This document shows, piece by piece, positions 10,231-33,483 of a stretch of DNA of 64,000 nucleotides; position 1 is the stretch's first letter; each line of letters starts with the position of its first letter. A program made the translations under genes and the position numbers. Origin of the DNA: an uncultured Gammaproteobacteria bacterium (GTDB lineage Bacteria; Pseudomonadota; Gammaproteobacteria; Pseudomonadales; JAHEGP01). The notes below the pieces were generated by a model that was given only the letters and a program-made list of their open reading frames with translations, had not been told where the DNA came from and made no database searches. The stretch lies in NCBI GenBank assembly GCA_963722805.1, contig CAVROQ010000008.1, positions 1,160-65,159 on the forward strand, read 5' to 3'.

Positions 10231-10303
10231 TTAAACCGGAATCCCTCTCAACGCATTGATCTTTAAACGGTTTGGTAAGCTCCCCGGCTTTTTGGGAGCG
10301 ACC

Positions 10304-11845
10304 ATGTCAGGCAAGAGAATCGCAATGCGCAAAATACGAGACGTACTCAGGCTTCGGTTATCCGCCGGCCTGTCCATCCGCGAGATCAGCCGCAGCACCA
10401 AGCTCAGTGTGGGCGGCATCCAGAAGCTGCTCAGCCGGGCCCAAGCCCTGGATCTGGGCTGGCCCCTAGCCGATAACCTGGATGACAATCGACTGGCACA
10501 GCTGTTCTATCCCAGTGCCGATACCCGCACCTCCCGCCGCTACCAGATGCCGGATTGGTCAGTCATCCACCAGGAACTCAAGCGGCCCCACATGACCAAG
10601 CAGTTGCTGTGGGAGGAGTACACCCAGCAATACCCCAATCGCTGTTACAGCTACTCCCAGTTCTGCGAGCGCTTCCGGCGATGGCAGGGCAAACAGAAGC
10701 GCTCCATGCGCCAGCACCACCGGGCCGGCGAGAAGTGCTTTGTGGATTACGGCGGTTCAACCGTGCCGATCATCAATGCCATGACCGGCGAGATCCGCGA
10801 GGCACAGATCTTTGTCGCCACCTTGGGCGCTTCCAACTACACCTTCGCTGAGGCGACCTGGTCTCAGTCGCTCCCCGACTGGCTGGGAAGCCATGTGCGG
10901 ATGCTGGAATTTTATGGCGGCTGTACCGACATGGTCGTCCCCGACAATCTACGCAGCGGTGTCAGCAAGGCCTGTCGCTACGACCCGGACCTCAATCCCA
11001 GTTATCAACAATGGGCCGAACACTACCTGGTCGCCGTGGTCCCGGCGCGGCCCTACAAACCCAAAGACAAAGCCAAGGCAGAGAATGCGGTTTTGGTCGT
11101 CCAGCGCTGGATTCTGGCCCGCCTGCGCCACCACAGCTTCTTCTCCCTGGCGGAGCTGAACCAGTGTATTCGCGCCTTGCTTGAGGACCTCAACAACCGC
11201 CCCTTCAAACAACTGCCCGGCTGCCGCCGCTCGGCGTTTGAGCAGTTGGATAAGCCGGCCCTGAAGCCGCTACCCACCCAGCCCTACCGCTACGTGGCCA
11301 TCAAGCCGGTCAAGGTCAACATCGACTACCACGTCCAGTACAAGGACCACAGCTACTCGGTGCCCCACCAATACGTCGGGGAACGGCTGGAACTGCACGC
11401 CAGTGAAACCCTGGTGGAAGTCTACTTCCGGCGGCAGCTGGTGGCCACGCACCCGCGCAAACACACGCCGGGGTTTACCACCAACCCGGCCCACATGCCC
11501 AAACGCCACCAGGCACAGCAGCAATGGACACCCGGGCGACTGAAGCGTTGGGCCGGCGACATCGGTCCGGATACCGGAGCCTGGGTCAGCGACCAGTTCG
11601 AGCGCCGGGAACACCCGGAGCAGGCCTACAGGGTCTGTCTGGGCCTGCTGAACCTGAGCAAGCAATACCCGGCCACCCGGCTCAATGCCGCCTGCCGCAT
11701 CGCCAACCAGGCTTCCCTGATGCGCCTGAAGCAGGTCAGGGCCATCCTGATGAGCAATCGGGACCAGTTGCCCGAACAACTCAGCCTCGCGGCTGAACTT
11801 CCCCAAGACCACGAGAATATCCGCGGTCCACACAACTTCCACTGA
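10304..11845 (+). CDS. istA: IS21-family transposase IstA, ~513 aa
   Basis: N-terminal HTH (MRKIRDVLRLRLSAGLSIREISRSTKLS) and a DDE core. Start re-called to the ATG at 10304, preceded by gggag. Confidence 0.9.
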   Translation: MSGKRIAMRKIRDVLRLRLSAGLSIREISRSTKLSVGGIQKLLSRAQALDLGWPLADNLDDNRLAQLFYPSADTRTSRRYQMPDWSVIHQELKRPHMTKQLLWEEYTQQYPNRCYSYSQFCERFRRWQGKQKRSMRQHHRAGEKCFVDYGGSTVPIINAMTGEIREAQIFVATLGASNYTFAEATWSQSLPDWLGSHVRMLEFYGGCTDMVVPDNLRSGVSKACRYDPDLNPSYQQWAEHYLVAVVPARPYKPKDKAKAENAVLVVQRWILARLRHHSFFSLAELNQCIRALLEDLNNRPFKQLPGCRRSAFEQLDKPALKPLPTQPYRYVAIKPVKVNIDYHVQYKDHSYSVPHQYVGERLELHASETLVEVYFRRQLVATHPRKHTPGFTTNPAHMPKRHQAQQQWTPGRLKRWAGDIGPDTGAWVSDQFERREHPEQAYRVCLGLLNLSKQYPATRLNAACRIANQASLMRLKQVRAILMSNRDQLPEQLSLAAELPQDHENIRGPHNFH

Positions 11846-18353: not shown

Positions 18354-19849
18354 TTAATTAGTCGACCCTGAAAAAGCCTAACTGGTCATCACTACATGAC
18401 TGTGATGGGTCGGTTTGATAAAAAGTCCCGTTATGCCGCTCCAGAAGGAAGCCATTTTCGGGGGCAATAAAAACAATCTCATCCATTTCCTAAAGTTGAA
18501 CGCAGCCGCAGCCATCAGTACGTTGATCTGGTCGCCTTCAAATCCTTTAAGATAACTTCTGTTGAGTCGGTGATCTGACTTCAGGTGACCAATCACCGGC
18601 TCAATACCGGCTCGCTTTCGAAATCGTTTCCGCATCAGTGCCTTGTAGGCACCGTTGTTATTCCGGGTGGTTGTACTGGGCCTTATGATCCGCGTGTCAT
18701 TGATCTTACTCTTCCCTTTGTAGCCTCTGTCACATATGCCAACGGCCGGTTTTAGCGCAGTGAGACGCTTTAATTGCAGAAGCACCTCCGGCAAGGTATG
18801 CCCATCAAATTTGTTGGTATCAAAGGCCATAGCACCGACAATGATTTTGGAATCCCGTGTTGTCGCGATAGAAACTTTAGTGCCAAATTCATAGCGCTTA
18901 TGTTCCTTGCCTTTGCTCATGCAGTAAACATGAGGTTCGTGCAGGCTGTACAGCTTGTGCTTATCTCCTCGCTTTTGGTTCAGTCCACGATGGAATAGTG
19001 CGAAGTCCTCTGCCAGATTTTCCAGAATGTCGAGTGGCAGTTTACGCTCTAATTCCCGAACTAAACGACCGGCAATGGTCTTTAGCCGTTTAACGGCTTT
19101 GCGGGCCTTGGCGCGATTCCTGGGGTGTCCTGCAAAACGACATTCCAGCTTTCTTTGTTTGATTTCCTTCGCGTAACTGCGACGAAGTTTTATGTTTTCC
19201 TTCCTGGCCAGTTTCAGGCAATAAACAATAATCTTTCGATACAACTTTGCATCGGTGGGAAAGGTGACATTTTTTTCCTGTACTGTGGTGTCAATACAGA
19301 CTTCCTCTTCGATGGCCTTCTCGCCGTGAATGGTGATGGAGGATGCCAGTATTTTCTCAAATCCTTTCTCACCCACTCGCTTGCGGAAGTACACCAGATC
19401 GGAAGGGTCACAGGGAAATGACCATTGGAATTCGACCTCTCCACAGAACGCCTGGTAATACGGATTCTGTACCCAGTGCCGCACGACAACCTCGTCGCTA
19501 ACGTTTTCCATGTGCTTGAGAATAGACAAGCCCACCATCAAACGTATAGGTTTGGCGGGCCTTCCAATCGGCGCATACAAGGGCGCAAACTCTGACTCAA
19601 AAAAGTCCCAGGGTATGGTTCGTGCAAGCTGTAACAGAGGGTGCTTCGGATTGAGTTGATCCATTAATCCGGCGGCCATAAAACTCATTTGATGGTGATC
19701 GGGGGAAGAATCTTTCATCGAATAGCCACCTCTATTTCGACCAGATTTAGTGTGAAATACGCGTGAAACTGGTTGAAATTATCTCACATATTCCTGGATT
19801 TACATATAGTATTCAATGGGTTATGAGTTTTTCAGGGTCAACTAATTAA
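18354..19849 (-). mobile_element. IS5-family insertion sequence
   Basis: 22-bp IR with one mismatch: ttaattagtcgaccctgaaaaa at 18354-18375 and tttttcagggtcaactaattaa at 19828-19849. The outer TTAA could be either a target duplication or part of the IR. Confidence 0.85.
18378..19718 (-). CDS. IS5-family DDE transposase
   Basis: InsH-like N-terminus (LNPKHPLLQLARTIPWDFFESEFAPLYAPIGRPAKPIRLMVGLSILKHMENVSDEVVV..NPYYQAFCG) and a DDE core with a C-terminal ..IEPVIGHLKSDHRLNRSYLKG.. motif. Confidence 0.85.
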   Translation of the reverse strand: MKDSSPDHHQMSFMAAGLMDQLNPKHPLLQLARTIPWDFFESEFAPLYAPIGRPAKPIRLMVGLSILKHMENVSDEVVVRHWVQNPYYQAFCGEVEFQWSFPCDPSDLVYFRKRVGEKGFEKILASSITIHGEKAIEEEVCIDTTVQEKNVTFPTDAKLYRKIIVYCLKLARKENIKLRRSYAKEIKQRKLECRFAGHPRNRAKARKAVKRLKTIAGRLVRELERKLPLDILENLAEDFALFHRGLNQKRGDKHKLYSLHEPHVYCMSKGKEHKRYEFGTKVSIATTRDSKIIVGAMAFDTNKFDGHTLPEVLLQLKRLTALKPAVGICDRGYKGKSKINDTRIIRPSTTTRNNNGAYKALMRKRFRKRAGIEPVIGHLKSDHRLNRSYLKGFEGDQINVLMAAAAFNFRKWMRLFLLPPKMASFWSGITGLFIKPTHHSHVVMTS

Positions 19850-19851: not shown

Positions 19852-21573
19852 TCAATCAGCCAAATAACTCAGTGGATATAAGCTAATATCAGCTCGGTAG
19901 TAATTGCCCAGCGCTATAGGTTCACCCACGGTGACGCCTGGGTTCTCCCTGATGACCTCCAACGACGTTTGGTCATTCCAGATATCGCTGAATAGAAAAT
20001 AATCCGGGCGGACTTTCTCAATGCTCTCGGCTCGGTTAAATACCCAGCTTACGTATAGTGACGGGATATTCGATTCTGCTGCGAAGAAGGCTGCCCAGTC
20101 GCCAGCAATTGATCGCCCATCTTCGACATTCTCCACTAATTTGGTGCGCACAGTTTGTGAGTCGTAGGATGGTGATGCGACATTGAGGCCGGTGATGCCG
20201 ATACTCATTACAACATAGGCAATCAGTGACAGCTTGATCACCGTTTTCAGGTGAACATCAGAAAGTACTAGTCTATAGCGATACAGCATTGCCAGTGTTG
20301 CCGCTGCTACTAAGGGAAAGGTCCACAGCAAGCCAGCTTTGCTAAAGCCCGAGTAGTCGTCTGAGAACGGGGTAACCAGATAACTATTGGCCACATTCAT
20401 CAGCGACAAAATCGTCATTACTATTAAACCAGCGACAAATATCTGCTCTGTCTTTCGCATTTCATGCCAGGACTTAAGCGGCGGGGAAGCTTGTCCTTGC
20501 CGGTAGAGCCAGTCGACAATAATCATGATGGCCGCAGGTACAATCGGAACCGAATAGCGGGGCGGATTGTAGCCAAACAGATTGAGTAAAACAGGTGCCA
20601 GCACCACGGTAGCAGCCATAGCCATCCGAAACAGGTTCCGTCGCAACAGCTGGGAGTTCTCTGCGATGGTGTGGATAATACATAAATAGGCTGTAGTGAG
20701 CAGGAAAGGGGACAGTTCGGCAATGTTGTTCCAGAATATTACCTGGGGGTGAGCGATGATTTCTGATATTCCCCCAGCGACTCTGCGTATCCATATCTCT
20801 CGCGCAAGGAACAGCACCACCAGCAGTGCTAATACCAGCAACGACACAATTATTAAGCTTTTGCGCGTGCGGAACCTGGCGAAGCGCTCATCGAGTACAA
20901 ATGCCAGCGCAATAATGGCGCTGGCGGGCGCTACATAAACCAGCCCCGACATTTTTACTGTAAGGCCTGCCACCAGGCCAGAGACTGCAAGTATGCTTAT
21001 AGCGAGCACATGCTGGTGTGGCTTCACCAGCAGGAGCAGAAAAAAGCCGATAAAGGTAAATACAATCAGATCAATTTCAAATAGTGCCACACGCGAAAAG
21101 CTGAATAGTGCGGGGTCAACGGCAATCATAAACGTTGCAAGCAGGGCCGCGCTCGGCCCCCAAAAGCGGGCCGTTACTGCTGCCACCATGAGTAAAAACG
21201 CCCCAAACATAATGACGCTAACAAGCCTGGCGCTGGCAAGTTCCAGTCCCCAGGCTTTAAAAGCCAGATAGTAACTCTGCTGGGTAAATGGGCTCCCCTT
21301 GCTCCATCCCGGGTAATCGTCGTTGGCGTTCCAGTGGGTATCACCAAACACGATGCGATTCCTGGCATCCAGGGTTTTATAGCCTTCGTCGATTTGCAAG
21401 CCTACATCATGTGGTATGTACCAGCCCGGTGGGTCGGCATCCAGGTTGAGCAGGCGAACGCCAATAGCGGTTAGTATGATAATTAGTAGCATTAGCCAGC
21501 GGCGAGAGCTGCTAAGCGCTGTTGCCGGGTTGGCTTCGGATGGGTAACACTTTTGCAAGCTAGTAGTGTTCAT
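19852..21573 (-). CDS. GT-C fold glycosyltransferase (GT39/GT83, ArnT/PMT-like) that would use a polyprenyl-phosphate sugar donor
   Basis: About 573 aa, with 11 or more TM segments. The first periplasmic loop carries the acidic motif LQIDEGYKT. A soluble C-terminal domain of about 110 aa follows. Start re-called to the ATG at 21573. Confidence 0.65.
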   Translation of the reverse strand: MNTTSLQKCYPSEANPATALSSSRRWLMLLIIILTAIGVRLLNLDADPPGWYIPHDVGLQIDEGYKTLDARNRIVFGDTHWNANDDYPGWSKGSPFTQQSYYLAFKAWGLELASARLVSVIMFGAFLLMVAAVTARFWGPSAALLATFMIAVDPALFSFSRVALFEIDLIVFTFIGFFLLLLVKPHQHVLAISILAVSGLVAGLTVKMSGLVYVAPASAIIALAFVLDERFARFRTRKSLIIVSLLVLALLVVLFLAREIWIRRVAGGISEIIAHPQVIFWNNIAELSPFLLTTAYLCIIHTIAENSQLLRRNLFRMAMAATVVLAPVLLNLFGYNPPRYSVPIVPAAIMIIVDWLYRQGQASPPLKSWHEMRKTEQIFVAGLIVMTILSLMNVANSYLVTPFSDDYSGFSKAGLLWTFPLVAAATLAMLYRYRLVLSDVHLKTVIKLSLIAYVVMSIGITGLNVASPSYDSQTVRTKLVENVEDGRSIAGDWAAFFAAESNIPSLYVSWVFNRAESIEKVRPDYFLFSDIWNDQTSLEVIRENPGVTVGEPIALGNYYRADISLYPLSYLAD

Positions 21574-21815
21574 AGTATCTGTGCATTCGGGGTGGGTCCT
21601 GTAACGCCTAATTCCCATTATAGAATCTTTTAGCGTAAGTACTTATTTTGTAGATGAAAATTGACCCAGCGATAAAAATGCTGCGAGGCAGGATTAACTC
21701 AAGCGGGCGATTATAGCCAAGAGATGCGGCGGTTAATACGTTTTCAGAGCGCTGAGGCAAGTAGCGATAAGTCAGCGCTCAAAGGCAGTAAAAGCCCTGC
21801 TCAGGCTCTAAACTA

Positions 21816-22763
21816 TTAGTTGATAATCTCTCGAATCTTGTATTCCTTAACTTCCTTGGAGTGGGTGAAGATGATGGTCTCTCCCACCAACCCAATGGCA
21901 ACCAATTGAATCCCCAGCACAATAAACAGTGCGCTAATCAATAACAGCGGGCGGTCAGCCGCGCCGACGTCAAAAAATAACCTTTGAACCGTCACTAACA
22001 GCAGGCCAAGACTACCAAACAGCGCTGCGCCGGTGCCAATAAGGCCAAAAAAACGTAGTGGTTTCTTATTGAATTTGGTGAGAAAAACAATAGTTAGCAG
22101 ATCAAGGAAGCGTCGAATATAGATGCCGGGAGAGTATATGCGGCTGTGTGCGTCTGCTTCCGCTTGCGGCAGATCTACCTCTTTAACCCTGAAGCCCTGG
22201 CCGCTGGCGATAACCGGTAAAAAGCGATGCTGGTCCCCGTAAATATTGAGTTCGATAAGGACATCTTTACGTACCAGCCTTACGCCGCATCCAAGGTCGC
22301 CAAACTCAATGTCAGTCAGCATTCGAATGGTTGAATTGAACAAGCCAGCTTGCATCTGGTTTAGGCCAGAGTCGATTCTTGGATTCCTGTTAGCTACCAC
22401 CATGTCACACTCGGCAATGTGGTCGAACAGGCTGCCAAGGCAGTCTGAGCGCACTTGCTCGTAGGGCGGTAGTATTAGTATCAGTTCTCCTTTGGCGGTG
22501 CTGGTGCCCACTTCAATAGCGGTAGCTTCACCAAAGTCCTTGCTCAGCACCAGCATCGATGTGTTGAGGTCCTCGCTCAACAGTGGCCGTAATTGAGCTG
22601 TTATTGGCTCCGAACTGGGTACCAGTACAAAAATATATTCAAAAGTTTTGCCCGTTGATTCAAGCGCACGCCTGTACTTTTGGTAGTTGTTGATTGTCTG
22701 GTCGTGACGTTCGCAGATAGGTATCACAACGCTAACATCAATGGCTGAGGTTTCGCTGGTCAC
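21816..22763 (-). CDS. GT2-like membrane protein: degenerate paralog of the adjacent polyprenyl-phosphate glycosyltransferase, with catalytic acidic motifs replaced
   Basis: Colinear with the neighbouring protein (including ..GDQHRFLPVIAS.. versus ..NEMHRFIPALLS.., and two C-terminal TM helices). The key motifs differ: ICERHDQ for YNEEDS, FVLVPSSEP for FVNDGSSDS, and ILPPYEQ for MDGDLQ. Confidence 0.6.
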   Translation of the reverse strand: MTSETSAIDVSVVIPICERHDQTINNYQKYRRALESTGKTFEYIFVLVPSSEPITAQLRPLLSEDLNTSMLVLSKDFGEATAIEVGTSTAKGELILILPPYEQVRSDCLGSLFDHIAECDMVVANRNPRIDSGLNQMQAGLFNSTIRMLTDIEFGDLGCGVRLVRKDVLIELNIYGDQHRFLPVIASGQGFRVKEVDLPQAEADAHSRIYSPGIYIRRFLDLLTIVFLTKFNKKPLRFFGLIGTGAALFGSLGLLLVTVQRLFFDVGAADRPLLLISALFIVLGIQLVAIGLVGETIIFTHSKEVKEYKIREIIN

Positions 22764-22767
22764 GGGG

Positions 22768-23757
22768 TTAATCCTTATCAGTAGCGGTTTGCGTTAAACG
22801 GTCTTTGCCTTGCGCTGCTTTCGGTTCACGTTTGTATAGCACCAGGTTGGATAGGTGCAGATCACCTTTTTGGTAGGCAAATTCACACAAAAAGCCCAGT
22901 CCCATCAAGAAAAAGGAAAGTGATACCAGAATGACCGACATGGAGCTATAGACAATGGCAGGCTGGTCCATCGCCAGTGTTCTGGCCGCTGCATAAAGGT
23001 AGAACATGGACGCAAGAAAAGGCACCGCTGCCAAACTAGCGAACCACCGCGCCGGGTGTTTCATCAAGGATAAAATGGTCTTGATCATCAGCAGGTCGAT
23101 CAGCACTTTGTAGATTCTCGACAGTCCATACTTGGATTCGCCAAATTGTCGCGCATGGTGCTTAACTTTGACCTGGGCGATTTTGGCGCCAGACAGAGAT
23201 AGCAGTGCCGGAATGAAGCGATGCATCTCATTATAAAATGGCGTGCTCTTCATCACGTTGGCCTGGTAGACCTTGAGCGAGCAGCCATTATCCTTGATGG
23301 GCACGCCGGTGACTTTGCCGATCAGCCAATTGGCTATTTTCGACGGTACTTTACGCGTAATCAACTTATCCTGCCTGTTGTGACGCCATCCCACCACAAT
23401 ATCGTAGCCCTGTGCCAGGGTGTCGAGCATCATCGGGATATCGCTAGGATCATTTTGCAGGTCGCCATCCATAGTAATAAGGATGTCACCGCGAGCATGG
23501 TCGATGCCCGCAGCCATGGCGGGTGTTTGACCGTAATTGCGACGAAAGTCAATAACCCGGAGCCTTGGGTCAGCGTTGGCCAGTTCAGCTGCCCTCTCAA
23601 AAGTGCTATCTGAGCTGCCATCGTTGACGAATAGCAGCTCGTAGCGGTAGGGCCGGCTGGTCATGGCAGCAGTGATTGCCTCATACAGTAGTGCCACGCT
23701 GTCCTCTTCGTTGTATAGAGGAACTATCACCGAGTGAAGGGCTGGTAGAGTATCCAT
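22768..23757 (-). CDS. Polyprenyl-phosphate glycosyltransferase, GT2 (ArnC/GtrB/DPM1-like)
   Basis: Canonical motifs IVPLYNEE, FVNDGSSDST, RRNYGQTPAMAAG and ITMDGDLQNDP, with two C-terminal TM helices. Start is the ATG at 23757 or the GTG at 23772. Confidence 0.8.
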   Translation of the reverse strand: MDTLPALHSVIVPLYNEEDSVALLYEAITAAMTSRPYRYELLFVNDGSSDSTFERAAELANADPRLRVIDFRRNYGQTPAMAAGIDHARGDILITMDGDLQNDPSDIPMMLDTLAQGYDIVVGWRHNRQDKLITRKVPSKIANWLIGKVTGVPIKDNGCSLKVYQANVMKSTPFYNEMHRFIPALLSLSGAKIAQVKVKHHARQFGESKYGLSRIYKVLIDLLMIKTILSLMKHPARWFASLAAVPFLASMFYLYAAARTLAMDQPAIVYSSMSVILVSLSFFLMGLGFLCEFAYQKGDLHLSNLVLYKREPKAAQGKDRLTQTATDKD

Positions 23758-23879
23758 TGGGGAACCGGTCACGGCTGCGGGTGTATATCTGGCTGTGTTT
23801 GCGATGTAGAAAAATCATAGTTCATGGCATTGCCTTCTACAAACCGACAAGTGCGCTGATCACAACGTACTTTACTGCG

Positions 23880-25584
23880 TTACTGTTCATTGCGGCAAAA
23901 GCGGCTGCGTCGATAGTTGGCATCGATCATATGCAGCCCGTCGACAGCATTAAAGGTATGGGTGCCGATAATTCTTGGGTCCCAATGAGGCTCGATACTT
24001 GAAACAACGGCCTCGCAGTAGTCGTCGGTACTTAGTCGTGTTATTTCGTTAATCTGAAAGCCATAACCGTAGCGTCGCGAAGAATTTTGGCCCGGACGGT
24101 AGAGACCTTCACCATGCTTGAAAATCTTGCCCGCTGGCCGTGCTTTGCGACAGTCTGAGATTATCGGGTTTTTTGGGTGCGGCTGCCATTCATTGCTAAG
24201 CAGATTCTCAGAGCTAAAAATGCACAGCTCATCCGCCAGCGACGCGCCTCTGGTTTCGGTAACGTTAGCAAACATCCACCACCGGCCATCCTGGTAGTGC
24301 AGGGTGGCATCACCGGCACGAATATCTTCCATCAAGTTCATAGCAAATTCCCAACGGTAAGGGAATTCAACGCATTTATACAGCTCGACGGTGCGGTTGC
24401 TCTGGGTCTCTGGAATCATATAGAAATTGTTTTCGTGTTCGAACACGAACGGGTAAGACAAATGGTAAGGCCGCTCCAACACGCGCTTAGGAGCTCCGTA
24501 TTGGCCGGTCTCGTCCATTTCAATGACGGATATGAATCCTCTATCGGTGCCAAAAATAAACTCTTCGATAAAAATATAGTAGCAACCGTCTTTGTGGATA
24601 ATATGCGGGTCGGCATAGAAGCGATCTTTAGGGGGCATGATTTTTTTATAGCGCCACAGTGAAGACGAAAAGCTATCCTTTAGGTCGTACATCAAGATCC
24701 ACTGATTGATGTAAAGGTTGTTGAAGTAAAGGTCAATGATTTTTTCAATAACCTTGCTCGATAGCAATTTGGCCATTTCATAGTTGGTCGGCATGACATA
24801 AAGGCGCTCAGAGTAAAGCTCTGGGTGGCGGTTGTCATGCTGGACCTGCCTGAAGAATTCGTCTGGGCCAGCTTCATACAGCTCCTGCATTTTTCGGGTC
24901 ATAAATGACAAGGTCTTCCATTTGTTGCGGCTGCGGTTATCCTTGACCGACATTGAGCTGGTGCTTGAGTAAGAGCGGTAGAGCACCATGCCATTGTCCA
25001 GATCTTCGTTGAGAATTTGCAGGATTGAGCCATTTACCGGCCAGCTCTCCATACTCTCCCAAAAACCTGCCGGGCCACCGCGATTAATCCGGTTGTCGCC
25101 ATGATGAAACGACCATACGCCATACCTGGCAATGGTTAGTATGTCGCCGCGCAGAATACGAAAACCGCAACGAATCAGAATGTCCAGTTTGTAGGATTCG
25201 ATATGGCTGATATCAGTGCTCTCGAAGCGATCCGACCACCGGGTTTTGATTGGCTTGCACTTTATGATCGGGATATTTGAAAGCAGAGCCTCGGCGTTGA
25301 CTTTCTCGCTGGCATCTGGGACCGAGTGTTTGCGTTCAATCAAAAGATAATAAAGGGCATTGAGCAGGCGCCCGATGCCTATGGATGGCAGACGCTTGTA
25401 GTTCCGCCTGAGCTTTTGGGAGCAGACTGCTATTTCCCTGCTTCATGGCAGTTTCGTTCAGGATGACAAGCTTTACTTCGGCAAAATCAGATTCCAGGAT
25501 GTCCTTTATCATCTTATGCTGCCAAGCTGACATCCGCTGGTTATCGTCAAGCAGTAAGCCGATTCGAAGTTTAGCTTTGGTCAT
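23880..25584 (-). pseudogene. Two-domain protein split by a 1-nt frameshift: a formyltransferase-like N-terminal domain and a C-terminal domain of unknown function that may be propeller-like
   Basis: The N-terminal 82-aa ORF (MTKAKLRIGLLLDD..) and the 487-aa ORF join if the T4 run at 25414-25417 is read as T3 (..SSLLPKLRRNYKRLPSIGIGRLLNALYY..). The Fmt-like core is DILIRCGFRILRGDILTIARYGVWSFHHGDNRINRGGPAGFWE. The C-terminal half reads FYADPHIIHKDGCYYIFIEEF. Confidence 0.6.
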
Positions 25585-25802
25585 TAAGGCAGCGAGTCCG
25601 GATTAATTTGATTTCTTCCAGTCCTGTTTCGGAGGGTTTGCGACAATGATTTCGACATTTTAGCTACCGGCGCAGCAAGGCCTGCCCTTTGATTATGGTA
25701 TTAGCATAAATCGCTAAGTTAGTAGGGAATTATAGACAAGATAGCACTTTGCCGGGAGTAATATAATGGTTTTTCCGCGCGGATATCTTTGTAAGTGTGC
25801 GA

Positions 25803-26909
25803 TCATTCAGTGGCCGCAGCGTGTTGGTATACCACTAGATGCTGCTGCGCCATAGCTTGTGAAGAATAGTGATCCAGCAGCTGTTGTCGAGCTATTTCAG
25901 TGAGTTGTGCTGCATCGGTGGGCCGTTCAATGATGTTGTTTAGCACCTCGGCAAACCCCTCTACCCGCTGCGTTTCCAGTACATAACCACACCGGCCGTG
26001 TCCCAGCAATTCGGGTAGGCCGCCAATACTGTGGGTGACAATAAGGGTGTTATGTTTCATGGCTTCCAGCGCTACCATTGGCAGTCCTTCGTGGTCGGAA
26101 CATATTACCAGTGCATCGAGTTTACCGATATACGCTTCGGCATTTTCGACGTGACCGACAAAGGTCACTTGTTCATCGACACCAAGGTCTGTTGCTAGCT
26201 GTTCAAGCTCTTGGCGCAAAGGGCCATCGCCGATGACGCTGAAAGCTGGCCTGCTTTCAGGAGATTGTGTGGCCAACACTTTTTGCGCAATCTGCAGGAA
26301 CAAATCTAGGCGTTTTACCGGTACAAGCCTCCCGACAATACCGATTTTAAGTGGTGGCTTGAATTTGTTCTGCAGGCCGAGCGAAGCCTCATCCAACTCT
26401 ATACCATTGGCAATGACACAGACCTTTTTTTGGCCATAACTGCCCCGCAGTTCTAATGCCAAAGGCTCCGATACCGAGATGACTTTTTTTTGCAACAATC
26501 TGCCGGTCAAAAAATCGGCATCGTGAATTAGTCTTTTTCTCAGGTTGAGCTTCCCGAACGCATGTTCGTTGGCGCCATGCTGGGTTCGAACACTGGGTAT
26601 CCGGTGCCGTGCTGCAACCAGGCCACCAATAATGTTTTCCTTTAAACGGTGGGTATGAATAATGTCGGGTTGAATTTTTTTAACCCACTGGTTCACCGCG
26701 TGAGCCAGTTGCACTATATTCTGGCGACTTTCGTCCAGTACCAGCAGTTCTACGCCCGCCGATCGGAGGCGTTCTGCCAGTGTTCCTGGGTTAAGGATGA
26801 CAGCAGCTACGCGAGTCTGTTGCGTTTTCTGCAATTCTACAGCCAGGGTGTAAAGTGCCTTCTCGGCGCCGGCCCATAGGTCGCCAGAAGCAATATGGAG
26901 TACTTTCAT
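25803..26909 (-). CDS. Glycosyltransferase, GT4 family
   Basis: 368 aa. N-terminus MKVLHIASGDLWAGAEK. E-X7-E region SDHEGLPMVALEAMKHNTLIV. Confidence 0.8.
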   Translation of the reverse strand: MKVLHIASGDLWAGAEKALYTLAVELQKTQQTRVAAVILNPGTLAERLRSAGVELLVLDESRQNIVQLAHAVNQWVKKIQPDIIHTHRLKENIIGGLVAARHRIPSVRTQHGANEHAFGKLNLRKRLIHDADFLTGRLLQKKVISVSEPLALELRGSYGQKKVCVIANGIELDEASLGLQNKFKPPLKIGIVGRLVPVKRLDLFLQIAQKVLATQSPESRPAFSVIGDGPLRQELEQLATDLGVDEQVTFVGHVENAEAYIGKLDALVICSDHEGLPMVALEAMKHNTLIVTHSIGGLPELLGHGRCGYVLETQRVEGFAEVLNNIIERPTDAAQLTEIARQQLLDHYSSQAMAQQHLVVYQHAAATE

Positions 26910-27056
26910 AAAAGCCAGAAGAAATCCACCGAGTAAATATAAGCTGCTATGTTACATGCATGTGGTCAAATTAATGCCATAATTAGGGCCGTAGTATAGC
27001 CCTATTACGTATCTAAAGCCGGCTTTCTTGTTGAATCGATTACCTTGAGAAACCGT

Positions 27057-28190
27057 ATGAAACTGGTGTTTTGGCTGTTAGCTGCTGCTGCGGCCTACAG
27101 CTACTTTATCTACGCTGCCTTGCTGCAAGTGCTGCCTAAGCGCCGCGCCTTTGTGGCGTTGGATAGTGGCGCCGAATTGCCCAAGGTAAGCCTGATTATT
27201 ACCGCCTATAACGAAGCCCGCCGCCTTGAGGAAAAACTGGAGAACTCGCTGGCCCTGGATTACCCAGAGGAGCTGTTGGAGATTATCGTTGCTTCTGATT
27301 GCTCTGAAGACGAAACCGACAGCATTGCCGAGAACTTTGCGCCGGGTCGAGTTCGGCTGGTCCGGGCAGACCAACGCAAAGGTAAGGAATATGCCCAGTA
27401 CTGTGCGATTCAGCAGGCCAGTGGCGAGATATTGGTTTTCTCGGACGTCGCGACCAGTATTTGCGCGGGCGCAATTCGTAACCTGGTCGACTATTTTCGT
27501 GACCCACGCATTGGTGCCATCTCCAGCGAAGATCATTTCGTTAGCCAGGATGGGACGGTTGTAGGAGAGGGTGCCTACGTCAGGTATGAAATGTGGTTGC
27601 GGCGGCTAGAGTCCGACTGTGCTGGGCTGGTCGGTCTTAGTGGATCGTTTTTTGCGGCACGAGCTTCGGTTTGCCAGCAATGGGATATCTACTCCCCCAG
27701 TGATTTCAATACCGCCCTGAGTTGTGTGCAGCAGGACCTGATCGCCATAACCGCTCCAGACGTGCAGGGGCACTATAAGGATATTGTAGATAGCAAGCGA
27801 GAGTACCAGCGTAAGGTGAGAACCGTGCTGCGGGGCATGACGGCTCTTGTGCGCCACCCGGAAGTACTGAGTTATCGGCGCTACGGCCTATTTTCAGTGC
27901 AACTGTGGAGCCATAAGATAATGCGTTGGGCGGTACCCTGGTTGCTGCTGGCACTTTTTTTGGTGTCATGTTTCTTATGGAATGAAGGAACGGTATATCG
28001 ACTCGCATTAATTGCTCAGCTGGTATTCTATGTCGTCGGGCTTGTAGGCTGGTTGTTGCCAGTCAGTCGAGAAATTGGCATGGTGAGGATGGTTTTTTTC
28101 TTCCAACTGGTGAACGTTGCCCTGGCGGAAGCTTTTATCAAGCTGGTAAAAGGCGATCGTATTTACGTTTGGAAACCCTCGCAGCGATGA
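27057..28190 (+). CDS. Glycosyltransferase, GT2 family, membrane-anchored
   Basis: Motifs VSLIITAYNE, IVASDCSEDETD and VFSDVAT, with an N-terminal TM helix and C-terminal TM helices. Start re-called to the ATG at 27057. Confidence 0.75.
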   Translation: MKLVFWLLAAAAAYSYFIYAALLQVLPKRRAFVALDSGAELPKVSLIITAYNEARRLEEKLENSLALDYPEELLEIIVASDCSEDETDSIAENFAPGRVRLVRADQRKGKEYAQYCAIQQASGEILVFSDVATSICAGAIRNLVDYFRDPRIGAISSEDHFVSQDGTVVGEGAYVRYEMWLRRLESDCAGLVGLSGSFFAARASVCQQWDIYSPSDFNTALSCVQQDLIAITAPDVQGHYKDIVDSKREYQRKVRTVLRGMTALVRHPEVLSYRRYGLFSVQLWSHKIMRWAVPWLLLALFLVSCFLWNEGTVYRLALIAQLVFYVVGLVGWLLPVSREIGMVRMVFFFQLVNVALAEAFIKLVKGDRIYVWKPSQR

Positions 28191-29356
28191 GGGCGTCCAG
28201 CTTCCCCGGCGAGCTTTTTCACGGGCGCTTATCGCCCGTCGGTGAGCCGATTGAGCTGCGCACTTTACCGTATGCTAACACCGAGCTGTTTCCCGAGAGC
28301 TACCGCGCATTGTTGCTGAACAGCGGCACTGCCGCGCTGTCCTTAGCTATGTCCATAGCCGCTAGCACAGCAAAATCCAGGTCGCCGGAAGTTATTCTGC
28401 CTGCCTATGGCTGCCCGGACCTATTGGCTGCAGCCTATGCCGCCGGGCTGCAGCCGGTACTGGTGGATATTCAAGCCGATAGCCCACGCTACCAGGAAGG
28501 CGGCCTCGGCGCTGCAATCACTGCGAACACCGTAGCGATTGTTGCCGTAAATTTTCTTGGTATTGCCGAAGACCTGCCGAGCCTGCGTATCCTTTGCGAT
28601 ACCAATGGACTGGTTTTGATAGAGGACAATGCCCAATATTTTCCTCTTGAAAATGCAAATTCCAGTTACAGTGGTGACCTGGTGGTGCATAGTTTTGGCC
28701 GGGGCAAGCCGGTAAGCCAGGTAGGCGGTGGGGCGCTTTTACTTCGGCCGTCAATAGCAAGTGCCGCCGGGGATATTATTGATTCTCTGCCGCTGCAGCA
28801 GCTGACAGAGCGCAGCTGGCGGCTGAAAGCCCGCCTGTTTAACCTGGTGTTGCAGCCGCATGTTTATCGGTTGCTCTCGCTGCTGCCGTTTCTGCACATT
28901 GGCGTCACACGCTACCATGCCTTGCAAGTCATCGAGCGCATGGATTTTTGGCGGGACGACTATATAAAGCGTAACGTCGAACTTTTTCGCAAGCGTTCTC
29001 GGCAGTTGCAACAACAAGTAGACGCCAAGCTTGAAGCAATAAATACGGCAGCTTACATCAATTTGCCGCGTCTGCTGCAAAGCCTGCAACAGCCGCTGCT
29101 GCGCTATCCAATAGTGTGTCGTAACAAAGCCCATTGCGATGGACTGTTTGCCGAGTTGGAAGGCAACGGACTGGGAGCTTCACGGATGTACCAGTTGCCG
29201 CTGCCGTCGATAGACAGCATCCCCCACCCGATTTCAGGGACATTTGCGGGAGCTGAGGTGTTCTCCGGCCGCTTGCTGACGCTGCCGCTCACCAGTTTTG
29301 TCGATCGGCCTCGGCTGGAAAAAATGTTTGAAATATTAGAAGCTGGCGCTGGCTAG
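28187..29356 (+). CDS. DegT/DnrJ/EryC1/StrS-family (sugar) aminotransferase-like protein
   Basis: Motifs NSGTAALSLAM, VLIEDNAQ and SFGRGKPVSQVGGGALLL (candidate PLP lysine). The ATG at 28187 overlaps the upstream stop as ATGA. Confidence 0.65.
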   Translation: MRASSFPGELFHGRLSPVGEPIELRTLPYANTELFPESYRALLLNSGTAALSLAMSIAASTAKSRSPEVILPAYGCPDLLAAAYAAGLQPVLVDIQADSPRYQEGGLGAAITANTVAIVAVNFLGIAEDLPSLRILCDTNGLVLIEDNAQYFPLENANSSYSGDLVVHSFGRGKPVSQVGGGALLLRPSIASAAGDIIDSLPLQQLTERSWRLKARLFNLVLQPHVYRLLSLLPFLHIGVTRYHALQVIERMDFWRDDYIKRNVELFRKRSRQLQQQVDAKLEAINTAAYINLPRLLQSLQQPLLRYPIVCRNKAHCDGLFAELEGNGLGASRMYQLPLPSIDSIPHPISGTFAGAEVFSGRLLTLPLTSFVDRPRLEKMFEILEAGAG

Positions 29357-29406: not shown

Positions 29407-32052
29407 TCAGTGGCTTTTCGCTTGTTGTAAATGCTGCTTTATTTCGGCCGAATCCGGCGCCAGCTGCAAGGCTTTTTCAAGCCATCGAATCCCCTGATCG
29501 GTCTCACCTTGAGTCAAGAAAACCATGCCAAGGGTATCCAGTACTGCCGGGTCTTCAGGGCGAATTTGCTGTGCCATCTGAGCGTGCTTCAATGCCTCAT
29601 CTCCGGCATTGGCTTGGCTCAAGTAGAGCCAAGCCAGGTTGTTCAGAGCAGTCACATTTTCAGGGTCAGCTTCCAGCAGTTGTTGGTAGAGCCGTATAGC
29701 AGACTCTGGGTTCGGCGATTGTTGCGCCTGGATCGCTTTAACTAATAGCAGCTGGCTATCGCCGGGGAGCTGGGTAGCCCAGTCTTTGGTAAATGCTTCG
29801 GCTTGCGCAGGATCGTTTACTCGGAGCAGCCCATAAATTTTACCTGCAATCATCGGGCTGGGTTGTATATTCCAGGCGTCGAGATAGGCAGCTAAAGCCT
29901 TTGCGTGATCTTGCTGGCCCTGGATATCGCCCAAAACCTCGTAGCCCTTTGCGGGAGCAAGTTGTAACAGCAGTTCAACCACCTCGTTCGCTGCAACGGG
30001 GTTACCGTCACGGACTTCGGTTGTGGCCAGCAGTTCCAGCAGAGGAATCGAATTGGGGAGCTGCGCCAGACCCTGCGACAGTTGCTTGCGTGCGAGTGAT
30101 AGCTTGCTGTCGGCAAGGGATTTTCTAGCAAGCTGCCGGTAAGCGTCCAGCGCGACACTCTCTATATAAGGACTATTCTCCTGGCGTTGCAAAGCCTGTT
30201 CAATCGCAGAGATAGCGGGCTGTAACCGCTGGTTGCGTAAGTGGTACTGTGCAGTAACGGCCAGTGCCAATCCATTTTGGGGGTTGTCGTCGCTAAAGCG
30301 ATGCAGTATCGCCAATCCGTGGGCCACATTATGTTGCGCTTCGTTAGTGCTGATGATTCCTTTGAGTGCATCGATAGAACTCGGAACAATATTTAACACA
30401 TTACAAAAGTAAGTTTCGGCGGTGGCGTATTGCTGTTCGCTGTATGCGAGCCGCGCCAGCGCCATCCAGGCTCGAGCGTTATCCGGTGCAATTTCTATTG
30501 CACGCTGTAAATGTTTGGTTGCACTGGTAGCGTCATCGGCCATCAAATATGCAATGCCTGCAAGTGTCAGGGCATTGCTGTCATTAGGGCTGCTACTGGC
30601 AATATCAGTCGCCAGGGCTATGGTTTCCTCGGTTTTATCACTGCTGATCAGTAGCTGGATCAGCGCCTCCTGGGCAGCGGGGTCGGCCGGGTTCGAGCGA
30701 TAGGCCTGGCGAGCTTGTTCCAGCGCCTGGGGCAGCAAGCCCTGCCGTCGGTAAAAAGTGAGCATTGCAAGCCGCAGTCGATTGTTGTCTGGATCCAGCA
30801 CCAACGACTGTTCTATGTAACCGATTCCCGTCAAATCCTGGCGAGCGAGTTTGGCAAGGCCGTAGAGGCCTAAAAGGTTGGCATTGCTACTGCGAGTCTG
30901 CAGCTCGGTCTCGAGAATATCCAGCACCTGGTCAATATCATTGAGTTGAAATTTTGCACTTAACAGCAACTCAAGTGCAGCACTATTCGCTGTTTCTGGA
31001 TCGATATGAGCAGTTAGCATGTCGGCAGCCTGGGATAGGTTACCCTGCAAATAACTGACAATACCCAGCAAGGTGCCGGCGAAACTGTCGCCGCCATTTT
31101 CAAGGGTCTGGGTCAGGATTTCGCTGGCCTCTTGCAGCTGATTGTCTCTAATTAGGTCAATGCTTTTCTCGATCAGTCTCTTGTTGGCAGAGTAGTCGGG
31201 TAACTGCTCGTTCAGCACGCGATCGTAGACCATGGCTTCATCAATGCGTCCATGCAAAGTCAGGGTCCGACTCATCAGTTGCAAAGCGTTAATTCGCTCG
31301 GGCAACATGATGTCGGTTACCGGTAGCTGGCCCAGCACGTCAGTCAAATAGTCTTCAGCGCGCGAGTATTTACCGCGCTGGATAGCGATTTCTGCTGCCA
31401 AAAGGCGTGCAGCACTATTTGGCTTTTTCGAATCAAGTAGCGGTTCCAGCGCAGCAAGAGCGGAATTGGACTTTCCCTCCAGAAGATCAATACGCGCCAA
31501 TTCGACGATTGCATTATCGCGGCTTGGTTCTTGAACAGCTTTTTGCAAAGCTAAGCGGGCGCTCTCCATCTCACCCAGGCCTGCCAGTGCCTGGCCGAGG
31601 TACAAGTGGCAGTAAAATTGCTGCTCGTTGCCCAGCGCGCAATTACTGTCCAGCAACAAATTCTTTGCCGAGCGATACTTTTTAAGGCCATTCAGGGCCC
31701 TGGCCTTTTCCAATATAAGGGCCGGATCGCTCTGGTCTGGCGCGATTGCTGCTGCATCGATGGCACTGCGAAAATAGCCCAGTTCGTTATAGAGGGAAAC
31801 GATCTGCAGGTGAGGCGCCATTTGTCCTGGGGCGAGGCGCACGGCGTTCTGCGCTTCAATCAATGCTGCCTTGAATTGGCCCTGTTGCTGGTAAGTTTGC
31901 GCACTTTTGACTTGAGGTGGCGCTTGGTCGAGTGGGCCGGATTTGTCGGATGGGCCGCATGCTGCCAGTAGGACAGCAATGGTAGCCCCAAGCATTGTTC
32001 TAATGCACGATGGCAGGTTGTATCGCGGAATACTGGGCCGGTAAAAGCGCAT
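29407..32052 (-). CDS. prsT: PEP-CTERM system TPR-repeat lipoprotein PrsT
   Basis: About 880 aa composed almost entirely of TPR repeats. Lipobox AVLLAAC-G near the N-terminus. It lies directly downstream of prsK-prsR. The start is ambiguous (32085, 32052 or 31995). Confidence 0.75.
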   Translation of the reverse strand: MRFYRPSIPRYNLPSCIRTMLGATIAVLLAACGPSDKSGPLDQAPPQVKSAQTYQQQGQFKAALIEAQNAVRLAPGQMAPHLQIVSLYNELGYFRSAIDAAAIAPDQSDPALILEKARALNGLKKYRSAKNLLLDSNCALGNEQQFYCHLYLGQALAGLGEMESARLALQKAVQEPSRDNAIVELARIDLLEGKSNSALAALEPLLDSKKPNSAARLLAAEIAIQRGKYSRAEDYLTDVLGQLPVTDIMLPERINALQLMSRTLTLHGRIDEAMVYDRVLNEQLPDYSANKRLIEKSIDLIRDNQLQEASEILTQTLENGGDSFAGTLLGIVSYLQGNLSQAADMLTAHIDPETANSAALELLLSAKFQLNDIDQVLDILETELQTRSSNANLLGLYGLAKLARQDLTGIGYIEQSLVLDPDNNRLRLAMLTFYRRQGLLPQALEQARQAYRSNPADPAAQEALIQLLISSDKTEETIALATDIASSSPNDSNALTLAGIAYLMADDATSATKHLQRAIEIAPDNARAWMALARLAYSEQQYATAETYFCNVLNIVPSSIDALKGIISTNEAQHNVAHGLAILHRFSDDNPQNGLALAVTAQYHLRNQRLQPAISAIEQALQRQENSPYIESVALDAYRQLARKSLADSKLSLARKQLSQGLAQLPNSIPLLELLATTEVRDGNPVAANEVVELLLQLAPAKGYEVLGDIQGQQDHAKALAAYLDAWNIQPSPMIAGKIYGLLRVNDPAQAEAFTKDWATQLPGDSQLLLVKAIQAQQSPNPESAIRLYQQLLEADPENVTALNNLAWLYLSQANAGDEALKHAQMAQQIRPEDPAVLDTLGMVFLTQGETDQGIRWLEKALQLAPDSAEIKQHLQQAKSH

Positions 32053-32107
32053 CGTTTTCCTTGCTTGGCTTTTGGAAGATGTCACATAACTCGCTGCAAA
32101 CGGCTGT

Positions 32108-33478
32108 TTACTCGGTGTCGAGTTGGATGTCGTATTTTTTCACCAGGTCGTACAGGGTTGGCCGGGTGATGCCGAGCAATTTTGCGGCAACAGTGATGTT
32201 GCCATCAGAAAAAGCCAGGGCTTTGTTGATTGCTGATTTTTCTGCGTCGAAGCGCACTTGTCGAAGGTTTATAGAAAGACCATCAGATTCTGCAAGACCA
32301 AGATCCGCTGCCGTTACCATTTTGTCATTGCACATGATCACAGCGCGACGAATTTTGTTCTCCATTTCCCGTATATTGCCCGGCCATGAATAGGCCTCAA
32401 TAGCCGTCGCGGCTTCCGGGGTAAATCCGGTCAAGGCCTTCGCATGCTCGGTACAGAATTTCTGTAATAAGTGGCGTGACAATAAAGTGCGATCGCCCTC
32501 ACGCTCTCGCAGCGGGGGGATGTTGATAACGATTTCGCTGATACGATAGAAAAGGTCCTCACGAAAGGTTCCCTCTGCGACCATCTCCTCAAGATTCTTG
32601 TTGGTGGCGCAGATAACCCTGACGTCGACCGAGATTAATTCCCGGCCACCCAGTCGTTCAATTTCTCTCTCTTGTAAGAACCGCAGCAACTTAGCCTGCA
32701 GTGTCAGCGGCATGTCGCCAATTTCATCAAGGAGTAGGGTGCCTCCGTCAGCGGACTCGATTTTGCCTATGGTGCGCTTGTTGGCGCCGGTAAACGCGCC
32801 GCGTTCATAGCCAAACAATTCGCTTTCCATGAGGTTTTCCGGCACCGCGGCACAGTTGATGGCGACAAACCTCTTGTCGACCCGCGGGCTCAGGCGATGG
32901 ATTGCCTTTGACAACACTTCTTTACCGGTTCCGCTGTCTCCCAGCAGCAGGCAGGTCACACTGGTAGGAGCAATTTTCTCAAGAGTGGCACAGATGCGTA
33001 TCATCGCGCCATCCGACGCAATAATCCCCTCTAACGGAGACTTTTGTTCTGACTGCATCCGCCGGTTTTGTTGTTCGAGCTGGTAGATGCGAAAGGCGCG
33101 CTGTACCAGCAAATCCAGAGTCGCGGTGTTGACAGGCTTTTCGTAAAAATCGTAGGCGCCCATGGCGATGGCACGAATCGCATTTTCGGTCTCATGGTGC
33201 CCGGTCACGACCACTATTTTGGTGTTAGGAGCCAGTTCAAGAATCTCGCGGACGGTGGCAAAACCTTCCTCAACGCCTTCCTCATCGGGCGGCAACCCGA
33301 GATCCTGCAATACCACACAGGGCTCCTCGCGCCTCACTGCCGCGATGGCGGTGATCCGATCCTCTGCCAGTGCAACATCGTACTGCTCGAAGTGCCAGCG
33401 CAATTGGCTTTGCAGACCGGTGTCGTCTTCAACGATTAGCAATTTCGGTTTGTTGTTGGTATTCGATGGGTTCGTCAT
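32108..33478 (-). CDS. prsR: PEP-CTERM-box sigma-54-dependent response regulator PrsR
   Basis: REC domain with LLIVEDDTGLQSQLRW...LQDLGLPPDEEG..GAYDFYEKP, an AAA+ sigma-54 interaction domain (GDSGTGKE, ESELFGYERGAFTGA), and a C-terminal Fis-type HTH. Start re-called to the ATG at 33478. Confidence 0.8.
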   Translation of the reverse strand: MTNPSNTNNKPKLLIVEDDTGLQSQLRWHFEQYDVALAEDRITAIAAVRREEPCVVLQDLGLPPDEEGVEEGFATVREILELAPNTKIVVVTGHHETENAIRAIAMGAYDFYEKPVNTATLDLLVQRAFRIYQLEQQNRRMQSEQKSPLEGIIASDGAMIRICATLEKIAPTSVTCLLLGDSGTGKEVLSKAIHRLSPRVDKRFVAINCAAVPENLMESELFGYERGAFTGANKRTIGKIESADGGTLLLDEIGDMPLTLQAKLLRFLQEREIERLGGRELISVDVRVICATNKNLEEMVAEGTFREDLFYRISEIVINIPPLREREGDRTLLSRHLLQKFCTEHAKALTGFTPEAATAIEAYSWPGNIREMENKIRRAVIMCNDKMVTAADLGLAESDGLSINLRQVRFDAEKSAINKALAFSDGNITVAAKLLGITRPTLYDLVKKYDIQLDTE

Positions 33479-33483
33479 ATGAA

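Follow-up and report, generated by a model that had tools for sequence, protein, structure and literature searches.

Introduction

Decoration of glycans in the periplasm with sugars from a lipid carrier is a main source of surface-glycan diversity, with seroconversion, phage resistance and resistance to antimicrobial peptides as outcomes; to our knowledge, few studies have addressed it in the exopolysaccharides (EPS) of environmental, floc-forming PEP-CTERM bacteria. Bacterial three-component systems of this kind include Gtr, Arn, CsbB/YfhO and Pgf, and in the Arn pathway ArnB, ArnA, ArnC, ArnD, ArnE/F and ArnT add 4-amino-4-deoxy-L-arabinose to lipid A. In general, three-component extracytoplasmic glycosylation systems consist of a lipid-phosphate-sugar synthase, a flippase and a glycosyltransferase (GT) of the GT-C class (PMC11127046). 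In the Gtr systems that modify the O-antigen, these are the undecaprenyl phosphate (Und-P)-glucose synthase GtrB, the flippase GtrA and a serotype-specific GT-C (PMC11127046). Here, we describe a locus in a stretch of 64,000 nucleotides from an uncultured Gammaproteobacteria bacterium (assembly GCA_963722805.1, contig CAVROQ010000008.1, positions 1,160 to 65,159; hereafter the window), in which two genes for GT2 enzymes, GT2a and GT2b, are followed by a gene for a GT-C protein (19852-23772, minus strand).

We propose that these three genes encode a variant three-component extracytoplasmic glycosylation system, with XrtA-associated EPS or another surface glycan as the most likely acceptor, and put the probability of this reading at roughly 0.6. 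The likely task of the conserved three-gene unit is the extracytoplasmic attachment of a sugar to a surface polymer. A first-pass annotation of the same DNA had gone further and read four genes, for the GT-C, GT2a, a formyltransferase-like protein and a DegT-like protein, as an Arn-like module. The conserved combination of a lipid-carrier GT2 with a GT-C stood up to comparison with other genomes, but the formyltransferase-like and DegT-like genes are not fixed partners.

Results

The GT-C protein represents an unmodelled family

The GT-C transferase expected at 19852-21573 was indeed found: the open reading frame (ORF) extends from 19852 to 21618, with an alternative ATG at 21573, and the product has at least 11 hydrophobic segments and a GT-C fold. 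The match to Pfam PMT_2 (PF13231; E 1e-3, 19.6 bits) is under the cut-off of 26.1, an NCBIfam scan of the protein gave no match, and the sequence profile of the family found no relative in the PDB, ArnT included; the fold search alone gave matches. Exact look-up of the 588-amino-acid (aa) protein of the window returned no entry, and homologues were used in its place. An AlphaFold2 (AF2) model made from 18 homologues (pLDDT 87.3, pTM 0.89) had ArnT (5f15/5ezm) as top match in Foldseek (E 1.8e-8, TM-score 0.51-0.53), with 13-14% identity in the structural match. ArnT was followed by 16 further GT-C structures; down to E ~1e-2 these were GT-C enzymes only (STT3, PglB, AglB, ALG9/12, AftA, EmbC and PimE), and Pmt1 and Pmt4 came at 5.6e-2 and 0.28. 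Within the family, Pfam PMT is matched by 5/18 members (best E 1.7e-8) and PMT_2 by 9/18. The protein has no MIR domain, and its C-terminal periplasmic domain is small. Taken together, the GT-C carries the features of the GT-C fold superfamily (GT-C_A type: ArnT, STT3/PglB, PMT) and lacks those of the ArnT/GT83 sequence family; an assignment to ArnT/GT83 was rejected after its defining features had been tested.

GT-C enzymes are expected to have acidic residues in the loop after the first transmembrane (TM) helix, TM1. Here, D47, D62, E63 and D85 are located in this loop and are, like R116, K207 and R339, 98-100% conserved among 103 representatives (50% clustering). The conserved loop, the first one predicted to be periplasmic, harbors the motifs LDADP and (I/V)DEGYKT; its location is deduced, not measured, from the positive residues (SSSRRW) ahead of TM1. 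R116, K207 and R339 are candidates for binding of the lipid phosphate. The family comprised 22 clusters in a word-indexed search; a hidden Markov model search of 1.84 billion representatives raised this to 182 clusters at E ≤1e-30 and 716 at ≤1e-10.

GT2a and its DXD-less paralogue GT2b

Polyprenyl-phosphate GT2 enzymes of the ArnC/GtrB/DPM1 type are characterized by a GT-A domain that carries a DXD motif, by amphipathic interface helices and by a C-terminal pair of TM helices. GT2a has all of these features. As the first-pass annotation had suggested for the ORF at 22768-23757 (23772 with the longer reading), it is ArnC/GtrB-like: its best solved relatives are ArnC (8vxh/9hwj/9bhc; E 5e-46 over the full length) and then GtrB (5ekp; 1e-34), and the DXD motif is intact (MDGDLQ; MDGDLQNDP). 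It also matches PgfS from streptococcal protein glycosylation (E 2.9e-42).

GT2b (21816-22763), which had been overlooked before, has the architecture but not the DXD. ArnC is again the best solved relative (2e-23 over the full length), but GT2b reads LPPYEQ where GT2a has MDGDLQ, and VLVPSSE in place of VNDGSSD, by which the nucleotide-binding Asp is lost in this clade. The loss of the DXD is kept in the orthologues of four other loci (L003, L004, L006 and L052), and LP[AP]YxQ-type motifs replace it in 120 of the 120 best database homologues. GT2a and GT2b are only 22-23% identical to each other and both miss the cut-off of the ArnC equivalog model NF007986 (529 bits) with 172 and 96.6 bits.

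In the window, GT2b starts 4 nt past the stop codon of GT2a, and in all loci examined (10 independent) it is the gene immediately behind an active GT2a; the stop codon of the one and the start codon of the other usually overlap. Because of this tight coupling of the genes, GT2b may be a non-catalytic subunit of a hetero-oligomer; the best-matching ArnC entries hold four chains each, which fits an oligomeric enzyme. A literature search for inactive ArnC/GtrB paralogues returned nothing relevant. Apparently, GT2a and GT2b are a widespread active/inactive ArnC-like pair without a described function, and the GT2b family alone has more than 4000 members. The pair is often found among housekeeping neighbours (serB, a glucosaminidase gene, an AI-2E transporter gene and parC), as in L134 (7031-8963), L135 (7043-8948) and L136 (7037-8981).

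GT-C and lipid-carrier GT2 occur together

We examined eight GT-C loci from exact protein look-up (L001-L008) and 45 metagenome loci; about 15 non-redundant ones are well covered, which means that the GT-C is flanked by no less than 2.5 kb on either side. In 11 of these ~15 loci, an ArnC-like GT2 is found no farther than ~3.2 kb from the GT-C, down to 29% GT-C identity, and GT2 and GT-C are also found together in L007, L008, L099, L105 and L119. The GT2a/GT2b pair is present in eight to nine loci (L001-L004, L006, L092, L106, L109/L119 and, partially, L105). The first-pass annotation had named separate occurrence of the GT-C and the GT2 in other genomes as an argument against a module; from the 11 of ~15 loci we therefore conclude that this argument does not apply, and the two co-occur in relatives as distant as 29-39% identity.

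In L007 and L008, a lone GT2 is fused to GtrA or accompanied by a separate one, and there is an additional GT-C of ~490 aa, which is PMT_2-like; these loci (4678-7362 and 4514-9198, respectively) look like versions of the classical three-component layout with two GT-Cs. We considered complementarity, by which loci with the pair would do without GtrA and loci with a single GT2 would have it. This was not established: GtrA was seen only in L007, L008 and L129, and the other single-GT2 loci have no small ORF with four TM helices. A separate peculiarity of L003 (12580-14375), L004, L005 and L007 are three small conserved genes after the GT-C, encoding proteins of 150 and 318 aa (no Pfam match) and a thiol-disulfide oxidoreductase of 127 aa that is DCC1-like; the window has none of the three genes.

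The top matches to ArnT (by GT-C structure) and ArnC (by GT2a) raise the question whether the GT-C is a true ArnT analogue that acts on phosphates of lipid A or of the lipopolysaccharide core with the sugar from GT2a, and is merely parked in an EPS locus. The housekeeping contexts of the pair elsewhere are as expected for a modification of envelope lipids. However, the identity to ArnT is 13-14% and the sequence profile does not find ArnT, the GT-C family is always located among polysaccharide genes, and there is no PmrA/PhoP-type regulation and no other Arn gene. We regard an ArnT analogue as very unlikely.

A formyltransferase-like fold fused to a β-propeller

The next gene upstream of the pair had been described as encoding a formyltransferase-like domain (23880-25584) with an uncharacterized C-terminal domain. 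The fold is real but weak, and a frameshift breaks the gene into an ORF at 25336-25584 and another, in a different frame, at 23880-25343. When the DNA was aligned with the unbroken genes of L001 (566 aa) and L002 (565 aa), one extra base appeared at 25421, a minus-strand T within CTGCTCCCAAAAG, which could mean a true pseudogene or an assembly indel. The profile of the N-domain matches Met-tRNA formyltransferase (4iqf; E 1.3e-3) and, in Foldseek with the AF2 model (pLDDT 85.7), the hydrolase domain of 10-formyltetrahydrofolate dehydrogenase and Met-tRNA formyltransferase at ~4e-7. Pfam Formyl_trans_N gave no match in the protein of the window and weak ones in 3/27 relatives. The C-terminal domain is indeed fused to it but can be classified: it matches Pfam GINT1_N (E 6.6e-37) and is a five-bladed propeller of the GH117/GH43 type, with GH117, GH43, GH159, GH62 and GH32 enzymes as best matches (from E 3e-9).

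Sugar N-formyltransferases and the ArnA N-domain use an Asn-His-Asp catalytic triad and a folate loop, SLLP(x)xRG. The profile alignment pairs WSFHHGD...NRGGP...LDNG with INVHASLLP..RGGAP...LDAG of 4iqf. His160, Asp196 and the RG of the loop are retained, but the position of the catalytic Asn is an invariant Ser158 and HGDNxxN (read as HHGDNxxNRGGP) replaces the SLLP loop. The residues on which the first-pass annotation had made its proposal depend are therefore changed at both sites, and the protein is not a canonical sugar N-formyltransferase. Since its N-terminus, MTKAKLRIGLLLDD, has no obvious hydrophobic signal sequence, as judged without a signal-peptide predictor, it is probably cytoplasmic. 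Members of the family are annotated only as 'glucosamine inositolphosphorylceramide transferase family protein' or as hypothetical, and a literature search for a bacterial role of GINT1_N proteins found nothing relevant.

The family is large (>4500 matches, 520 GTDB species genomes, 43-60% identity across phyla) and occurs in Proteobacteria, Bacteroidota, Planctomycetota, Acidobacteriota, Chloroflexota and some archaeal metagenome-assembled genomes (MAGs). In 80 fetched loci, de novo clustering of the neighbours revealed no fixed partner. A GT4 is close by in 44, frequently upstream; a DegT-like gene was found in six; the GT-C was found in four, which all belong to the window's clade. The GT2a/GT2b pair is present in five, namely the same clade in four cases and a Woeseia sp. 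MAG (L052), the sole adjacency of this kind outside the clade. There, GT2a, GT2b and the formyltransferase-like gene lie side by side in the same orientation (7963-11677), followed by a WbaP-type initiating transferase gene, and no member of this GT-C family lies within 10 kb. Seven of the 80 loci share a recurring set in which the formyltransferase-like gene is preceded by a GT4 and accompanied by a CE4 deacetylase and a multi-TM GT2; of these partners, the window has the GT4 and the GT2 but not the CE4. In these unrelated genomes (L030, L031, L036, L039, L041, L042 and L044; match at ~10 kb in each), the CE4 reads TFDDG...HSHSHP and the GT2 is like that at 27045-28190 of the window; a formyltransferase fold beside a CE4 resembles the arrangement of ArnA-N and ArnD.

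The DegT-like gene and the question of an Arn pathway

The DegT-like protein (28169/28187-29356) was confirmed by Pfam (E 1.1e-24). The lysine for pyridoxal phosphate (PLP), whose absence would have spoken against the proposal of the first-pass annotation, is present (SFGRGK, aligned with SFYPGK of DesV), as is EDNAQ; divergence is seen in the C-terminal half. Among solved structures, DesV (2.5e-10) and not ArnB is closest to the protein, and the ArnB model NF008658 gave 35 bits against a cut-off of 631. Together with a multi-TM GT2 (27045-28190), the gene forms a separate operon on the plus strand, divergent from the module, which had gone unnoticed. Next to the GT-C, the formyltransferase-like and DegT-like genes are found only in the closest clade (L001, L002/L009, L010, L011 and L032), uncultured Gammaproteobacteria MAGs with at least 67% GT-C identity. 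Neither gene is present in L003-L008; among the 45 metagenome loci, the formyltransferase-like gene was not found at all and a DegT-like ORF (24-26% identity) in two (L120 and L132). The DegT-like gene is not a conserved partner of the GT-C.

The first-pass annotation had already noted the absence of a deformylase and of small flippase subunits, and our searches agree. Queries with CE4 and, by tblastn, with the GtrA of L008 gave no match in the window, and there is no small ORF with three to four TM helices between 12 and 40.5 kb. Family scans of the ORFs of the locus revealed no ArnA C-domain (UDP-glucuronic acid dehydrogenase/decarboxylase), ArnD or ArnE/F, and a 4,6-dehydratase is not encoded in the window. 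None of the proteins reaches the NCBIfam equivalog cut-offs for ArnA, ArnB or ArnC. On the grounds of the missing ArnA C-domain, ArnD and ArnE/F and of the equivalog scores, we rejected the locus as an Arn pathway.

The four-gene reading, in which all four genes serve one Arn-like route, has to be weighed as well. The DegT-like enzyme would make an amino sugar nucleotide, which would be N-formylated or acylated, loaded on Und-P by GT2a and transferred by the GT-C to EPS or to PEP-CTERM proteins. All four types of gene do lie within 9.5 kb and are together in the five closest loci, GT2a is nearer to ArnC than to GtrB (5e-46 versus 1e-34), the DegT-like protein retains its PLP lysine, the pair is directly upstream of the formyltransferase-like gene in Woeseia, and this gene adjoins a deacetylase of the ArnD-type fold, CE4, in seven other loci. 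Yet the formyltransferase-like gene occurs in 0/45 metagenome loci and in none of L003-L008, the DegT-like gene in 2/45; conversely, only four of the 80 formyltransferase-like loci have the GT-C and six the DegT-like gene. In addition, the catalytic Asn is an invariant Ser, SLLP is replaced, Formyl_trans_N is weak in 3/27, and the gene is frameshifted here; the DegT-like gene sits in its own divergent operon, no 4,6-dehydratase, UDP-glucuronic acid dehydrogenase/decarboxylase or deformylase is found in the window, and the ArnA/B/C cut-offs are missed widely. This makes a four-gene route improbable; the formyltransferase-like gene and the GT2/DegT operon are part of the surrounding polysaccharide locus, not fixed parts of the module.

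Layout of the locus and its surroundings

The 9.5 kb in which four genes had been named contain seven (Table 1). On the minus strand, transcription runs from the GT4 gene through the formyltransferase-fold/GINT1_N gene, GT2a and GT2b to the GT-C.

Table 1 Genes and mobile element in and next to the glycosylation locus (positions in the window).
Feature	Position	Strand	Evidence or remark
IS5-type insertion sequence; DDE transposase 18378-19718; 22-nt terminal inverted repeats (95% complementary)	18354..19849	-	
GT-C-fold membrane glycosyltransferase, 573 aa (588 aa if start at 21618)	19852..21573	-	AF2 fold match, conserved residues
GT2b, DXD-less ArnC-like paralogue, two C-terminal TM helices	21816..22763	-	Profile match, motif alignment
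GT2a, polyprenyl-phosphate glycosyltransferase of ArnC/GtrB/PgfS type, DXD intact, two C-terminal TM helices	22768..23772	-	Profile match
Formyltransferase-fold + GINT1_N five-bladed β-propeller gene, +1 frameshift	23880..25584	-	Pfam, AF2, orthologue alignment
GT4 glycosyltransferase, similar to stp2 below cut-off; first gene of minus-strand run	25803..26909	-	
Multi-TM GT2, PgaC/NodC-like N-terminal half, four TM segments; first gene of divergent operon	27045..28190	+	
DegT/DnrJ/EryC1-family PLP enzyme gene	28169..29356	+	Overlaps preceding GT2 by 22 nt

To the right, genes for PrsT, PrsR and PrsK follow (29407-35526), and then DUF1631 and housekeeping genes. Of the three Prs proteins, the family-library scan covered PrsT alone (292 bits against a cut-off of 312); the labels PrsR and PrsK were read off the translations, and their orthologues are syntenic in L011 and L032. 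To the left, beyond the IS5-type insertion sequence (IS), there are genes for a GT4, a Wzb-like phosphatase, an ATP-grasp protein and a Wzy/O-ligase-like protein. The Prs genes, the GT4s, the Wzy/O-ligase-like gene and the Wzb-like phosphatase around the module support the assignment to a surface glycan. Genes for an exosortase, Wzx, an initiating transferase or a PEP-CTERM substrate were not found in the window.

The same, putatively PEP-CTERM-related surroundings could speak for a protein as acceptor, in which case the chemistry of GT2a, GT2b and GT-C would be the same but Ser/Thr-rich PEP-CTERM or other secreted proteins would be O-glycosylated in the manner of PMT or PgfS/PgfM. In line with this, 5/18 members of the GT-C family match Pfam PMT, the family of protein O-mannosyltransferases (best E 1.7e-8), GT2a matches PgfS (E 2.9e-42), the locus looks like that of a PEP-CTERM system (PrsK/R/T) and large secreted PKD/F5-F8/β-helix proteins are encoded beside the module in L003 and L004. 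We nevertheless consider a protein acceptor quite unlikely: the fold match to ArnT is far better than that to Pmt1 and Pmt4 (1.8e-8 versus 5.6e-2 and 0.28), the MIR domain is missing and the C-terminal periplasmic domain is small, genes for GT4, Wzx and Wzy of polysaccharide synthesis dominate most loci, and the window yielded no PEP-CTERM substrate gene.

The IS5-type element, likewise overlooked before, is inserted 2 nt past the stop codon of the GT-C, in the spacer to the convergent GT4 gene; in L001 this spacer has 116 nt and no insertion. The element is context and does not belong to the module. Farther to the left, between 2367 and 12615, mobile elements replace the left part of the EPS locus: three consecutive tyrosine recombinase genes (2367-5583) and then IS91, IS66 and IS21 (istA/istB). 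Could the module be a decaying remnant without function in this organism? The frameshift in the adjacent gene, the IS right behind the GT-C, the truncation of the left side by IS91, IS66, IS21 and three recombinases, and the lack of an exosortase, Wzx or initiating transferase gene in the window would all agree with decay. On the other hand, the ORFs of GT-C, GT2a and GT2b are intact and full-length and every family-invariant residue is kept, and the one-base indel may have arisen in assembly; in L002, a related assembly, many genes are in fragments. We hold a mere remnant to be extremely improbable.

Three further observations concern the related assemblies and the rest of the window. In L002/L009, the genes for DegT, GT4 and PrsT are broken into short ORFs. 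The MAG MFD09779.bin.1.234 has the same locus on three contigs (L009, L010 and L032) at similar identity, which points to a bin that mixes several strains and not to three paralogous loci. At 46946-48196, a long way from the EPS locus, the window has two adjacent DUF4136 paralogues that are apparently unrelated to the finding.

Discussion

How would a system of GT2a, GT2b and GT-C work? By homology, GT2a would move one sugar from a nucleotide sugar to Und-P at the cytoplasmic face of the membrane. GT2b, in which the membrane and interface helices are retained and whose translation is coupled to that of GT2a, may be the non-catalytic subunit of a hetero-oligomer with it. The Und-P-sugar would then be flipped across the membrane, a step for which a GtrA or ArnE/F-like gene is not present. 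Finally, as its fold and conserved residues suggest, the GT-C would glycosylate a periplasmic acceptor with the lipid-linked sugar. From the context, this acceptor would be the XrtA/PEP-CTERM-associated EPS or a different surface glycan for which the flanking GT4, GT2 and Wzy-like genes are responsible.

As in other three-component systems, synthase and GT-C co-occur, but several observations weigh against our proposal. There is no flippase gene at the locus; a dedicated flippase (GtrA, SMR or MATE) encoded together with the GT2 and the GT-C is a mark of three-component systems. Four or five well-covered GT-C loci (L098, L102, L103 and L120) have no ArnC-like GT2 nearby. The GT2a/GT2b pair, with >4000 homologues, is far commoner than this GT-C family (~180 clusters) and occurs in conserved chromosomal contexts without a GT-C within 8 kb, for example in Ketobacter-like genomes; since it is so much more widespread and found in GT-C-free contexts, the pair has a broader role that is independent of this GT-C. 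Moreover, GT2b is presumed to be a non-catalytic partner of GT2a from the loss of its motifs alone. Last, the locus may not be fully functional in this organism because it is eroded, as seen from the adjacent IS, the neighbouring frameshift and the IS cluster to the left.

It is tempting to go one step further and to speculate that GT2a and GT2b are an obligate heteromeric polyprenyl-phosphate sugar synthase, in which the pseudo-glycosyltransferase subunit replaces a GtrA-type flippase, by donor hand-off or scrambling, and which feeds a new family of ArnT-fold GT-Cs that decorates XrtA-type EPS. We consider this bolder version unlikely as it stands. If it were true, the GT-C would found a new CAZy family. 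The locus does reveal a GT-C family that is not covered by a model and comprises ~180 clusters at 50% identity, and the analysis cautions against reading the co-location of domains as an 'Arn pathway'.

Of the known systems, Arn resembles the locus in that ArnC is the best match for GT2a and GT2b and ArnT for the fold of the GT-C, with a DegT-family and a formyltransferase-fold protein encoded nearby. The differences are considerable. The locus lacks the ArnA dehydrogenase/decarboxylase, ArnD and ArnE/F and misses all equivalog cut-offs, its context is an EPS locus and not lipid A modification, and neither the DegT-like nor the formyltransferase-like gene is a conserved partner. Unlike in Arn, the formyltransferase-like domain has no catalytic Asn and continues into a GH43/GH117-like propeller. 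With the sugar N-formyltransferases and the ArnA N-domain this protein has the N-domain fold in common, as well as the His, the Asp and the loop's RG, but Asn has become an invariant Ser, SLLP has become HGDNxxN, and the C-terminal five-bladed propeller (GINT1_N) sets it apart. PgfS/PgfM of streptococci and PMT/Ppm of actinobacteria also combine an ArnC/PgfS-like GT2 with a GT-C of the PMT superfamily; here, however, the structural similarity to Pmt is weak, the organism is Gram-negative, and the context is an EPS locus. Compared with Gtr, the locus has a second, DXD-less GT2 and no GtrA, its GT-C stands outside the named Gtr families, and GT2a is nearer to ArnC. It shares with Gtr a polyprenyl-phosphate GT2 with two C-terminal TM helices beside a multi-TM GT-C in a surface-polysaccharide locus, and the distant members of the GT-C family in L007 and L008 do carry GtrA.

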